From the IMG/VR virus record IMGVR_UViG_2681813271_000013: a stretch of DNA of 8,511 nucleotides; one strand, 5' to 3'. Under the pieces are notes generated by a model. That model was given only the letters and a program-made list of their open reading frames with translations, did not search any database and was not told the DNA's origin. The translations under genes and the position numbers were made by a program. Of the stretch, positions 2,447-8,511 are shown one piece after another. Numbering within the stretch: position 1 is the stretch's first letter; each line of letters opens with the position of its first letter. Source of the DNA: a virus. Taxonomy: Duplodnaviria; Heunggongvirae; Uroviricota; Caudoviricetes.

Positions 2447-2933
2447 GCAGCCATTTGCCTGGCCGTATCCGGTGCGCCTGCATGGGCGTCTGAACATCAG
2501 TCCACGCTGAGCGCGGGGTATCTTCATGCCCGGACCAACGTTCCCGGCAGTGATGATCTGAACGGGATTAACGTGAAATACCGTTATGAGTTTACGGATA
2601 CGCTGGGGCTGGTGACGTCATTCAGCTATGCAGGAGACAAGAATCGCCAGCTGACCCGTTACAGCGATACCCGCTGGCATGAAGATTCCGTGCGTAACCG
2701 CTGGTTCAGCGTGATGGCGGGGCCGTCTGTGCGCGTGAATGAATGGTTCAGCGCGTATGCGATGGCGGGTGTGGCTTACAGCCGTGTGTCGACTTTTTCC
2801 GGGGATTATATCCGCGTAACTGACAATAAGGGGAAAACGCACGATGTGCTGACCGGAAGTGATGACGGTCGCCACAGCAACACGTCTCTGGCGCACTGAC
2901 GGTTTCATCGTGGGTGTCGGTTATAAATTCTGA
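2447..2933 (+). pseudogene. lom: Second, divergent lom copy lacking its signal peptide and carrying a 3' deletion/frameshift
   Basis: 2447-2896 aligns with lom 976-1425 with scattered substitutions and one replaced patch. After ...SNTSLA the sequence reads cac tga, an in-frame stop at 2897-2899. The following bases encode a Lom C-terminus-like peptide (DGFIVGVGYKF then stop at 2931-2933) in another frame, consistent with an 83-nt deletion between two ctggcg direct repeats relative to copy 1. Confidence 0.65.
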
Positions 2934-2997: not shown

Positions 2998-5900
2998 ATG
3001 GCAGTAAAGATTTCAGGTGTACTGAAAGACGGCACAGGAAAACCGGTACAGAACTGCACAATCCAGCTGAAAGCAAAACGTAACAGCACCACGGTGGTGG
3101 TGAACACGCTGGCCTCAGAAAATCCGGATGAAGCCGGGCGTTACAGCATGGACGTTGAGTACGGTCAGTACAGCGTTATTCTGTTGGTGGAAGGATTCCC
3201 GCCGTCACATGCCGGGACCATCACCGTGTATGAAGATTCCCGACCCGGTACGCTGAATGATTTTCTCGGTGCCATGACGGAGGATGATGCCCGTCCGGAG
3301 GCACTGCGCCGTTTTGAGCTGATGGTGGAAGAGGTGGCGCGTAACGCGTCCGCGGTGGCACAGAACACGGCAGCCGCGAAGAAATCAGCCAGCGATGCCA
3401 GCACATCAGCCCGTGAGGCGGCAACCCATGCGACTGATGCTGCAGATTCAGCACGTGCAGCCAGCACGTCAGCCGGACAGGCCGCTTCGTCGGCTCAGTC
3501 AGCGTCTTCCAGCGCAGGAACGGCATCAACAAAGGCCACTGAAGCCTCAAAAAGTGCTGCCGCTGCAGAGTCCTCAAAAAGCGCGGCGGCTACCAGTGCC
3601 GGTGCGGCGAAAACGTTAGAAACGAATGCGGCAGCGTCACAACAATCAGCAGCCACTTCTGCATCCACCGCGACCACGAAAGCGTCAGAAGCTGCCACCT
3701 CAGCCCGGGATGCGTCGGCTTCAAAAGAGGCGGCAAAATCATCAGAAACGAACGCATCATCAAGCGCCAGTAGCGCAGCTTCCTCGGCGACGGCGGCTGC
3801 AAATTCTGCGAAGGCGGCCAAAACGTCCGAGACGAACGCCAGGTCTTCTGAAACGGCAGCGGGACAGAGTGCCTCAGCTGCGGCAGGCTNNNNNNNNNNN
3901 NNNNNNNNNNNNNNNNNNNNNNNNNNNNNNNNNNNNNNNNNNNNNNNNNNNNNNNNNNNNNNNNNNNNNNNNNNNNNNNNNNNNNNNNNNNNNNNNNNNN
4001 NNNNNNNNNNNNNNNNNNNNNNNNNNNNNNNNNNNNNNNNNNNNNNNNNNNNNNNNNNNNNNNNNNNNNNNNNNNNNNNNNNCAACCGATGCTGCAGCCT
4101 CAGCACGTGCCGCCAGCACGTCAGCCGGACAGGCCGCGTCGTCGGCTCAGTCAGCGTCTTCCAGCGCAGGAACGGCATCGACAAAGGCCCGTGAAGCAGC
4201 AAAAAGTGCTGCNNNNNNNNNNNNNNNNNNNNNNNNNNNNNNNNNNNNNNNNNNNNNNNNNNNNNNNNNNNNNNNNNNNNNNNNNNNNNNNNNNNNNNNN
4301 NNNNNNNNNNNNNNNNNNNNNNNNNNNNNNNNNNNNNNNNNNNNNNNNNNNNNNNNNNNNNNNNNNNNNNNNNNNNNNNNNNNNNNNNNNNNNNNNNNNN
4401 NNNNNNNNNNNNNNNNNNNNNNNNNNNNNNNNNNNNNNNNNNNNNNNNNNNNNNNNNNNNNNNNNNNNNNNNNNNNNNNNNNNNNNNNNNNNNNNNNNNN
4501 NNNNNNNNNNNNNNNNNNNNNNNNNNNNNNNNNNNNNNNNNNNNNNNNNNNNNNNNNNNNNNNNNNNNNNNNNNNNNNNNNNNNNNNNNNNNNNNNNNNN
4601 NNNNNNNNNNNNNNNNNNNNNNNNNNNNNNNNNNNNNNATGCCGCAGCATCACAAAAATCGGCAGAAAGCGCCGCATCATCCGCTTCAACAGCCACAACG
4701 AAGGCTGGCGAAGCCACTGAGCAGGCCACGGCAGCAGCGAGGTCTGCTTCTGCAGCAACGCGCGCTGAGACAGCGNTCAAAAACAGCGGCTGCATTATCT
4801 GCCAGTGCCGCGTCAACAAGTGCCGGGCAGGCCTCAGCCAGTGCCACCGCCGCCGGAAAATCGGCAGAAAGCGCCGCATCATCCGCTTCAACAGCCACAA
4901 CGAAGGCTGGCAAAGCCACTGAGCAAGCCACTGCAGCAGCGAGGTCTGCTTCTGCAGCAAAAACCTCTGAAACAAATGCAAAGACTTCAGCAGACAATGC
5001 TGCTTCCTCTAAGGCAGCAGCCGCATCGTCAGCCAGTTCAGCGGCGTCATCGGCATCATCTGCGTCTGCTTCAAAAGATGAGGCGACCAGACAAGCGTCA
5101 GCAGCGAAAGGTAGTGCCACGACAGCAACAACGAAAGCATCAGAGGCGGCAGGCAGTGCGACGGCTGCATCTCAGAGCAAAGTTGCTGCTGAATCCGCGG
5201 CAACGCGCGCCGAGACAGCAGCAAAACGGGCAGAGGATATTGCATCCGCCGTGGCGCTTGAGGATGCGAGCACGACGAAAAAGGGGATAGTACAGCTCAG
5301 CAGTGCGACCAACAGCACTTCCGAGTCACTGGCGGCAACGCCAAAAGCGGTTAAGGCGGTAATGGGTGAAACGAACAAGAAAGCGCCCTTAAATAGTCCT
5401 GCACTGACCGGAACGCCAACAACACCAACTGCGCGACAGGGAACGAATAATACCCAAATCGCAAGCACGGCTTTCGTTATGGCTGCGATTGCCGCCCTTG
5501 TAGATTCGTCACCTGATGCACTGAACACGCTGAACGAGCTGGCTGCGGCGCTGGGCAACGACCCGAATTTTGCGACCACCATGACTAACGCGCTTGCGGG
5601 TAAGCAACCGAAAGATGCCACTCTGACGGCGCTGGCGGGGCTTGCTACTGCGGCAGACAGGTTTCCGTATTTTACGGGGAATGATGTCGCCAGCNCGGAA
5701 AATCGGCAGAAAGCGCCGCATCATCCGCTTCAACAGCCACAACGAAGGCTGGCGAAGCCACTGAGCAGGCCACGGCAGCAGCGAGGTCAGCTTCCGCAGC
5801 GAAGACATCCGAAACGAACGCGAAAGCGTCGGAAACCCGTGCAGAATCCTCAAAAACGGCTGCCGCATCGTCCGCCAGTTCGGCGGCGTCATCGGCATCA

Positions 5901-7811
5901 TCGGCGTCTGCTTCAAAAGATGAGGCGACCAGACAGGCGTCAGCAGCGAAGGGCAGCGCCACGACGGCATCCACGAAGGCGACAGAGGCTGCTGGTAGTG
6001 CGACGGCAGCAGCTCAGAGCAAAAGTACGGCGGAATCTGCAGCAACGCGCGCTGAGACAGCGGCAAAACGGGCAGAGGATATTGCATCCGCCGTGGCGCT
6101 TGAGGATGCGAGCACGACGAAAAAGGGGATAGTACAGCTCAGTAGTGCGACTAACAGCACTTCCGAGTCACTGGCGGCAACACCAAAAGCCGTTAAGGCC
6201 GCGTATGACCTGGCTAACGGGAAATACACCGCACAGGATGCAACGACAGCACAGAAAGGGATAATCCAGCTAAGCAGCGCGACCAACAGCACGTCTGAAA
6301 CGCTGGCGGCAACGCCAAAGGCAGTAAAAGCAGCCAATGACAATGCTGAGAAACGTCTGCAGAAAGATCAGAACGGTGCGGATATCCCTGGCAAAGACAC
6401 CTTTACGAAAAATATTGGTGCCTGCCGTGCCTTCGGTGGGTCAGTAAGCACAACAACAGGAAACTGGACGACTGCACAGTTTATCGAGTGGCTGGATTCT
6501 CAGGGAGCATTTAACCATCCATACTGGATGTGCAAGGGTTCCTGGTCTTATGGCAATAATAAAATCATTACTGATACTGGCTGCGGTAATATTCATCTCG
6601 CCGGAGCTGTCATTGAAGTAATGGGGATAAAGTCAGCGATGACGATCCGCATTACCACTCCGACCACATCCAGCGGTGGCGGAACAACCAACGCCCAGTT
6701 TACCTATATTAATCACGGAACAGATTATTCACCTGGCTGGCGAAGGGACTATAACTCCAGAAATAAGCCAACGGCATCAGAGATCGGGGCGCTACCGTCA
6801 GGTGGAACAGCAGTATCATCAGTTAATCTGGCTTCAAAAGGTCGGGTAGCCGCGCTGACAGACAATACGCAGGGGGCAGCAGGTCTTGAGTTATACGAGG
6901 TGTATAACAACGGATATCCAACAGCGTATGGAAATATCATTCACCTGAAAGGGATGACAGCCGTTGGCGAAGGTGAGTTACTCATCGGCTGGAGTGGTAC
7001 AAGCGGTGCTCATGCTCCGGCATTTATTCGTTCACGACGGGATACGACCGACGCAAACTGGTCGCCGTGGGCGCAGCTTTACACCTCGGCTCATCCTCCT
7101 GCAGAGTTTTATCCAGTCGGTGCACCAATCCCGTGGCCATCAGATACCGTTCCGTCTGGTTATGCCCTGATGCAGGGGCAGACTTTTGACAAATCTGCTT
7201 ACCCGAAACTTGCAGCCGCTTATCCGTCAGGCGTGATCCCTGATATGCGTGGCTGGACGATTAAGGGCAAGCCCGCCAGTGGTCGTGCCGTATTGTCTCA
7301 GGAACAGGATGGCATTAAATCGCACACCCACAGCGCCAGCGCATCCAGTACGGATTTGGGGACGAAAACCACATCGTCGTTTGATTACGGCACTAAATCC
7401 ACGAATAACACCGGGGCGCATACGCACAGTCTGAGCGGCTCTACAAGTTCAGCTGGGGCCCACCAACATAGTCAGACTGGGCCCAGAACGAATAGCGGGA
7501 GTCAACCTACTGGAATGTTTCCGGCAGGGAGTACTCAAGTTAGCGGGACTAATCAGGTTGGTATCAGTGGCTCATTAACCAGTGGCACCTCCCAATGGGT
7601 AGGTAAATCATCTTCAGAAGGAAACCATACACACTCACTGTCCGGCACAGCAGCATCTGCGGGTGCACACGCGCATACTGTCGGTATTGGTGCTCATACG
7701 CACTCTGTTGCGATTGGTTCACATGGACACACCATCACCGTTAACGCTGCTGGTAACGCGGAAAACACCGTCAAAAACATCGCATTTAACTATATTGTGA
7801 GGCTCGCATAA
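2998..7811 (+). CDS. stf: Side tail fibre protein Stf (lambda Stf / StfR-like; T4 gp37-related tip), gapped and with frame discontinuities
   Basis: ATG at 2998 gives [26 protein letters not shown]... (the track starts at GTG 2992). A long Ala/Ser/Thr-rich repetitive shaft follows. The C-terminal part (frame 3, about 5697-7808) contains [24 protein letters not shown] fibre repeats, the [16 protein letters not shown]...[30 protein letters not shown] tip, and ends ...[18 protein letters not shown] with TAA at 7809-7811. The reading frame changes at N-run 3890-4082, N-run 4213-4638, and single N's at 4776 and 5695, so true length and repeat number are unknown. Confidence 0.75.
3890..4082. other. 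Assembly gap (193 N) in the stf repeat region
   Basis: Run of N; the sequence after it (4083-4212) matches allele 1 rather than the preceding allele 2. Confidence 0.9.
4083..4212 (+). repeat. 130-bp island identical to stf allele 1 (2250-2379), isolated between two gaps
   Basis: Exact match by eye to 2250-2379 (caaccgatgctgcagcctcagcacgtgccgcc...aaaaagtgctgc). It differs from the corresponding allele-2 stretch at about 3422-3550. Confidence 0.85.
4213..4638. other. Assembly gap (426 N) in the stf repeat region
   Basis: Run of N. Confidence 0.9.
4854..6132 (+). repeat. Two copies of a ~435-bp stf shaft repeat unit (4854-5290 and 5696-6132), roughly 90% identical
   Basis: Both begin ccggaaaatcggcagaaagcgccgcatcatccgcttcaacagcc and end ...gaggatgcgagcacgacgaaaaaggggatagtacagctc. 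They encode (A)[19 protein letters not shown]...[33 protein letters not shown] partial, collapsed version is at 4648-4775. Confidence 0.8.
5275..6334 (+). repeat. Three phage tail-fibre repeat motifs GI(V/I)[11 protein letters not shown](S/T)[10 protein letters not shown] (about 5275-5362, 6119-6202, 6251-6334)
   Basis: Direct reading of the translated stf frames. The motif looks like the short fibre repeat found in lambda Stf and T4 gp37-type fibres; I recall it as Pfam Phage_fiber_2, unverified. Confidence 0.7.
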
Positions 7812-8327
7812 TGGCATTCAGAATGAGTGAACAAGCACGGACCATAAAAATTTATAACCTGCTGGCCGGAACTAATGAATTTATTGGTGAAGGTGACGCA
7901 TATATTCCGCCTCATACAGGTCTGCCTGCAAACATCGTGGCATCTCGTTGAAGATCATCGGGGTAAAACGGTTTATGACGTGGCTTCCGGCGACGCGTTA
8001 TTTATTTCTGAACTCGGCTCATTACCGGAAAATGTCACCTGGTTATCCCCGGAAGGGGAGTTTCAGAAGTGGAACGGCACAGCCTGGGTGAAGGATACGG
8101 AAGCAGAAAAACTGTTCCGGATCCGGGAGGCGGAAGAAACAAAAAACAGCCTGATGCAGGTAGCCAGTGAGCATATAGCGCCGCTTCAGGATGCTGTGGA
8201 TCTGGAGATCGCAACGGAGAAAGAAACCTTGTTGCTGGAAGCCTGGAAAAAGTATCGGGTGTTGCTGAACCGTGTTGATACATCAACTGCACCGGATATT
8301 GAATGGCCAGTAGCACCTATAGGGTAA
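7811..8327 (+). pseudogene. tfa: Tail fibre assembly protein Tfa, disrupted by an internal deletion/frameshift
   Basis: ATG at 7811 overlaps the stf stop (TAATG). Frame 2 gives [41 protein letters not shown] then IVASR and stop at 7949-7951. The conserved continuation [28 protein letters not shown]...[16 protein letters not shown] runs in frame 3 from about 7935 to TAA at 8325-8327. The track ORF 7875-8327 is this C-terminal part with a spurious start. Confidence 0.75.
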
Positions 8328-8410
8328 ATTCGTAATGATTACCTAAATACGTTATTCTTTTGTTAAAAAAGTGATTTTGCTATAGGTAGGGAGTATGTTC
8401 TTGGATTAAG

Positions 8411-8443
8411 AATAAAAAATCGCCATGAAAGAGCTTCATGGCG
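8411..8443 (-). terminator. Intrinsic terminator oriented for minus-strand transcription
   Basis: Perfect 9-bp inverted repeat cgccatgaa (8421-8429) / ttcatggcg (8435-8443) with loop agagc. On the minus strand the stem is followed by ATTTTTTATT (complement of 8411-8420). On the + strand the downstream sequence is not T-rich. Confidence 0.5.
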
Positions 8444-8511
8444 AGTACATAAACGTACAAAATGTGATGAAAGTAGAGTGGCGTAAGCCACTATATTAAG
8501 ATATGACAATA

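Follow-up and report, generated by a model that had tools for sequence, protein, structure and literature searches.

The side-tail-fibre locus and its assembly

The stretch of DNA analysed here, which we call the window, is 8,511 nucleotides long (IMG/VR record IMGVR_UViG_2681813271_000013). It carries a remnant of lom, two parts of the side-tail-fibre gene stf and, directly 3' of stf, a tail fibre assembly gene (tfa) that is divided between two reading frames (Table 1). The start codon of tfa (ATG, 7811-7813) overlaps the stop codon of stf (TAA, 7809-7811) to give TAATG; the same overlap is found in lambda, and the position directly behind stf with overlapping stop and start is shared by lambda and E. 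coli 13P477T. A preliminary description made from the letters of this DNA had placed the fibre gene downstream of tfa. This is incorrect, as the cognate stf lies upstream and ends at 7811.

Table 1. Coordinates of the features of the window
Feature	Position	Strand	Remarks
N runs	1434-1511, 3890-4082, 4213-4638		
Single Ns	2446, 4776, 5695		
lom remnant	2447..2930	+	83-bp out-of-frame deletion at 2887/2888
stf 5' part	2998..3889	+	Pfam phage_tail_N; 100% identical to 53G; cut by scaffold gap at 3890
stf 3' two-thirds	5696..7811	+	frame 3, gapless; corresponds to the intact 1027-codon stf of 53G
tfa 5' fragment	7811..7951	+	41 native codons, 5 out-of-frame codons (IVASR), TGA
150-codon ORF	7875..8327	+	21 junk codons, then Tfa 64-193
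Deletion junction in tfa	7932..7935		ancestral codons 42-63 (65 bp) gone
tfa 3' remainder, frame 3	7935..8327	+	residues 64-193 + stop; complete Pfam Caudo_TAP match

Six N stretches interrupt the window, which is a draft scaffold with gaps, and the caution over draft quality voiced in the preliminary description was thus reasonable. The tfa gene itself sits in the gap-free stretch 5696-8511, which is 99.9% identical to the corresponding locus of S. sonnei 53G, while the segment 2447-3889 matches that locus at 100% identity. The scaffold joins bring together, in alternation, segments of at least two lambdoid prophages. We considered the upstream region as a real mosaic made of lom, an stf N-terminus fused to lom, and a second stf interrupted by a nonsense codon and by a frameshift. 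This was rejected: the N runs and single-N joins, together with the plain J-lom-stf-tfa order in the finished 53G genome, identify the mosaic as an artefact. Two open reading frames fall with it, namely the apparent stf::lom fusion at 1838-2899, produced by a scaffold join, and the long ORF at 4195-6132, which crosses N positions.

Two hairpins were also observed. Between lom and the start of stf, at 2940-2990, lies a hairpin rich in GC with a T run behind it (GCCCGCCGGTTCAGGCGGGCTTTTTT); it is conserved in E. coli 13P477T and looks like an intrinsic terminator. At 8420-8444, on the minus strand and facing tfa from downstream, a terminator-like hairpin consists of an 11-pair stem and then a T run, which suggests that it marks the end of a convergent transcript.

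An out-of-frame deletion within tfa

The preliminary description read tfa as split by a frameshifting deletion with both parts still recognisable, and the frame structure and alignments bear this out. The native frame (ORF 7811-7951) comprises 46 codons and ends at a premature stop (7949-7951), so the uninterrupted reading frame of about 190-200 codons expected of tfa is absent from the window; the rest of Tfa is encoded in frame 3, which stays open over 7848-8327. With two intact Tfa proteins as tblastn queries, one from E. coli 13P477T (193 aa) and one from lambda (194 aa), residues 1-41 align to frame 2 at 7811-7933 (100% and 98% identity, respectively), and residues 62-193 align to frame 3 at 7929-8324 (94% and 89%). 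Homology to Tfa is thus found on both the N-terminal and the C-terminal part, and the joint E value of about 1e-92 for the two parts against intact Tfa is far beyond chance. The Pfam Caudo_TAP match (intact residues 72-191; E = 2e-44) lies wholly inside the frame-3 remainder, as does the conserved C-terminal helical region of Tfa.

The lesion was sized by DNA alignment of the window with the intact tfa genes of E. coli 13P477T and lambda. Against E. coli 13P477T, the sole indel is one gap of exactly 65 bp. Against lambda, the 65-bp gap is accompanied by an extra 3-bp indel near the divergent lambda 3' end; this alignment also confirms the lambda Tfa sequence that the preliminary description had quoted. 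The breakpoint was placed by script between window positions 7932 and 7935, inside the interval 7925-7940 that the preliminary description had proposed for inspection. The dinucleotide CA at 7933-7934 is a 2-bp microhomology found at both ancestral breakpoints, and a search for direct repeats longer than this CA at the tfa breakpoints found none. The deletion takes away residues S42-A63, that is 22 residues, in good agreement with the earlier estimate of roughly 20. Since 65 leaves a remainder of 2 on division by 3, the loss shifts the reading frame; from the native start, the 41 native codons are followed by IVASR and a stop. Compared with intact orthologues, the gene is therefore disabled by an out-of-frame deletion and a premature stop.

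Distribution of the junction

The same junction occurs well beyond the window. Its 30-mer is present on 3 IMG/VR contigs, 109 contigs named Shigella sonnei have records of the 46-aa product that is specific to the deletion, and the junction-containing 150-aa ORF is found in 104 blocks of the collection, including the finished S. sonnei 53G chromosome (HE616528.1). The fetched junction-bearing set includes 9 NCBI assemblies and 3 IMG/VR contigs. All 15 deletion-bearing loci that were fetched contain the 30-mer; 14 of these match the window at 100% identity across as much of the 517-bp tfa region as each one contains, and 13, with 53G among them, are identical over all 517 bp.

These data bear directly on the proposal, raised in the preliminary description, that the split stems from an indel made in sequencing or assembly, in a low-coverage draft of a genome whose real tfa is intact. 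The state of the window, a draft scaffold broken by six N stretches and built from pieces of more than one prophage, speaks for such an error. The gene nevertheless lies in a gap-free stretch, the loss of 65 bp is atypical of read errors, and the same junction is seen in the finished 53G genome, in the 9 NCBI assemblies, in the 3 IMG/VR contigs and on 109 contigs overall. Its recurrence in 53G and in more than 100 independent assemblies refutes a draft error, to which we assign practically no probability. An identical junction in a finished genome and in many assemblies means that the lesion is genuine and clonally inherited: the tfa deletion is a real, heritable S. sonnei allele and not an assembly artefact.

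In E. coli, the picture is one of intact genes. When 5,426 complete E. coli genomes were searched with a 52-bp probe that had the junction at its centre, no match spanned the junction, so the possibility that intact homologues carry the same junction in a single frame found no instance there. The 701-bp tfa region was matched in 5,210 of the 5,426 genomes, in 3,676 of them over at least 80% of its length; among the matches listed, every E. coli hit spans 65 bp more than the 701-bp query. Thousands of E. coli genomes thus have an intact tfa orthologue in a single frame, and only one clonal lineage, S. sonnei, shows the split. A junction search of the GTDB species-representative genomes returned no match; these representatives evidently include no copy of the S. 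sonnei allele, and with the allele missing from the set, this null result says nothing on its rarity. A literature search for a description of the S. sonnei tfa lesion found nothing relevant.

One IMG/VR contig shows the junction in another setting. In L005 (IMGVR_UViG_2690316166_000013, 3356-4771), the 65-bp tfa junction stands behind a 296-aa macro-domain gene, and the 5' end of tfa has 7 differing positions, which all fall in the part equivalent to window 7815-7859. E. coli genomes with an L005-like macro-domain arrangement have an intact tfa. Either co-resident prophages have recombined, or L005 is a chimeric contig put together from short reads.

The distribution also weighs on a further reading, in which a programmed +1 ribosomal frameshift would fuse both frames into a shortened Tfa. 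Frames 2 and 3 are indeed both open over 7848-7951, and a +1 shift in this interval would yield a fusion protein. Such a protein, however, would still be without 22 or more residues of the N-terminal half, and no prfB-like or other known +1 motif is found at the CGT TGA A stop or elsewhere in 7848-7951. Moreover, the thousands of homologues are single-frame, the split is limited to the one lineage, and neither a two-frame arrangement nor a shift site is conserved in homologues. We therefore give programmed frameshifting next to no chance.

Probable consequences for Tfa and decay of the prophage

Taken as a whole, the locus is very probably a tfa pseudogene in a degraded lambda-like prophage of S. 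sonnei, in which one 65-bp deletion leaves no full-length chaperone to be made. We propose the following course of events. The 65 bp of codons 42-63, in the N-terminal half of tfa, would have been lost in one step, by illegitimate recombination or slippage between two CA dinucleotides. Ribosomes starting at the native ATG at 7811, translationally coupled to stf, would then read five wrong codons and stop at 7949-7951, so that the product would be a 46-residue peptide, and the remaining 130 codons would be left without a start signal of their own. With no full-length Tfa coming from the locus, the upstream Stf would not be folded by its cognate partner. The lesion would have arisen once and been passed on by clonal inheritance thereafter. 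Judging from the sequence, the chaperone function is probably lost, and the Stf of this prophage presumably cannot fold with its cognate Tfa; neutral decay is the probable cause of the loss.

What the deletion takes from the protein can be viewed against Mu Tfa, the only structurally studied relative. Residues 112-174 of Mu Tfa (PDB 5YVQ chain B) align with query residues 126-191 (E = 1e-8), whereas the N-terminal half has no detectable sequence similarity, and the deletion is mapped to the fibre-binding domain by position only. In the summary of North et al. given in PMC9608196, fibre binding falls to the N-terminal domain of Mu Tfa and trimerisation to its conserved C-terminal helices, and the same two-module logic would apply here. 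The deletion and frameshift together remove or disconnect the first 63 residues of Tfa, and the lost residues would, by analogy with Mu, fall in the fibre-binding half.

It is conceivable that the gene is split and still useful, with a translated C-terminal fragment that would retain some chaperone or trimerisation activity and may serve Stf or the fibres of other prophages in the same host. The candidate starts are the ATG at 7875, or the GTG at 7980 by re-initiation after the stop at 7949. The open 150-codon ORF does begin with ATG, and it keeps the full Caudo_TAP domain and the C-terminal helices; public S. sonnei records name 7875-8327 'tail fiber assembly protein', and tfa ORFs that have lost the N-terminus, P0018 for example, are widespread in E. 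coli. Against this, no convincing Shine-Dalgarno sequence precedes either candidate start, and no plus-strand promoter-like site is found nearby. The fragment is also without the first 63 residues, the positional counterpart of the fibre-binding half of Mu Tfa, and the neighbouring lom is broken as well. The S. sonnei copies are identical through recent clonal descent, and thus offer no selection test. On balance, we regard a useful fragment as improbable. Less probable still is that the C-terminal 130 residues or the 46-residue peptide would be expressed and retained for a role that benefits the host or acts between prophages, for example in trans on fibres that belong to co-resident or superinfecting phages.

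Truncated copies of tfa are familiar from other prophages. tfaD and tfaS are tfa pseudogenes of cryptic prophages of E. coli K-12, and P0018-type N-terminally truncated ORFs were seen on 167 E. coli contigs, so Tfa remnants without the N-terminus are common in other prophages. All of these are, like the S. sonnei copy, inactivated or truncated tfa genes in defective lambdoid prophages; they differ in that the lesion in the window is an internal loss of 65 bp with both flanks kept, and not a terminal truncation or rearrangement. The closest intact relatives are lambda tfa (orf-194) and the E. coli tfaQ/tfaR-type genes (Pfam PF02413, Caudo_TAP), with 94-100% protein identity flanking the lesion and the same placement directly after stf with the TAATG overlap. 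These are single ORFs of 193-194 codons, whereas the tfa of the window is without residues 42-63 and has its frame shifted. A parallel is lambda PaPa (orf-401/orf-314, as compared with Ur-lambda), in which the side-tail-fibre module is also disabled by a small frameshift while the other tail genes are intact. There, the 1-base loss lies in stf and tfa is unharmed; in S. sonnei, 65 bp are missing from tfa, and 53G has an intact stf.

The state of the neighbouring genes agrees with the pseudogene reading. In 53G, the gene order is H-M-L-K-I-J (1165 aa), lom (160 aa, truncated), stf (1027 aa, one ORF) and tfaΔ65. The 83-bp deletion in lom lies between CTGGCG direct repeats and is identical in the finished 53G genome; it is a second inactivating lesion beside tfa and independent of the tfa deletion. 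On the 3' side of tfaΔ65, 53G has about 0.8 kb of AT-rich DNA, an IS1 and further transposase and regulator fragments. The IS1 (InsA and a DDE transposase) occupies positions 11258-11955 of the fetched 53G locus (L015), about 0.8 kb past the right end of the window, and is followed by fragments of an AraC-type regulator, other transposases and then an integrase. The right end of the 53G prophage is thus heavily IS-disrupted. Two adjacent accessory genes with out-of-frame deletions and a nearby IS form the pattern of a decaying prophage, as the preliminary description had supposed. The genome of S. sonnei is rich in both IS elements and pseudogenes, and this pattern fits it. Decay is not uniform, however, since stf and the tail genes up to J remain intact ORFs in 53G.

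The tfa lesion is a matter of ordinary prophage decay, in a pseudogene that is already contained in published, annotated genomes. For annotation, the ORFs at 7811-7951 and 7875-8327 should be recorded as one tfa pseudogene, and not as a 'phage tail protein' and a 'tail fiber assembly protein'. The importance outside annotation is small. The junction of the 65-bp deletion (GGTCTGCCTGCAAACATCGTGGCATCTCGT) may serve as a lineage marker, as it is found in S. sonnei assemblies and in none of the 5,426 complete E. coli genomes. The finding adds one more case to the pseudogene accumulation that is typical of Shigella prophage remnants.
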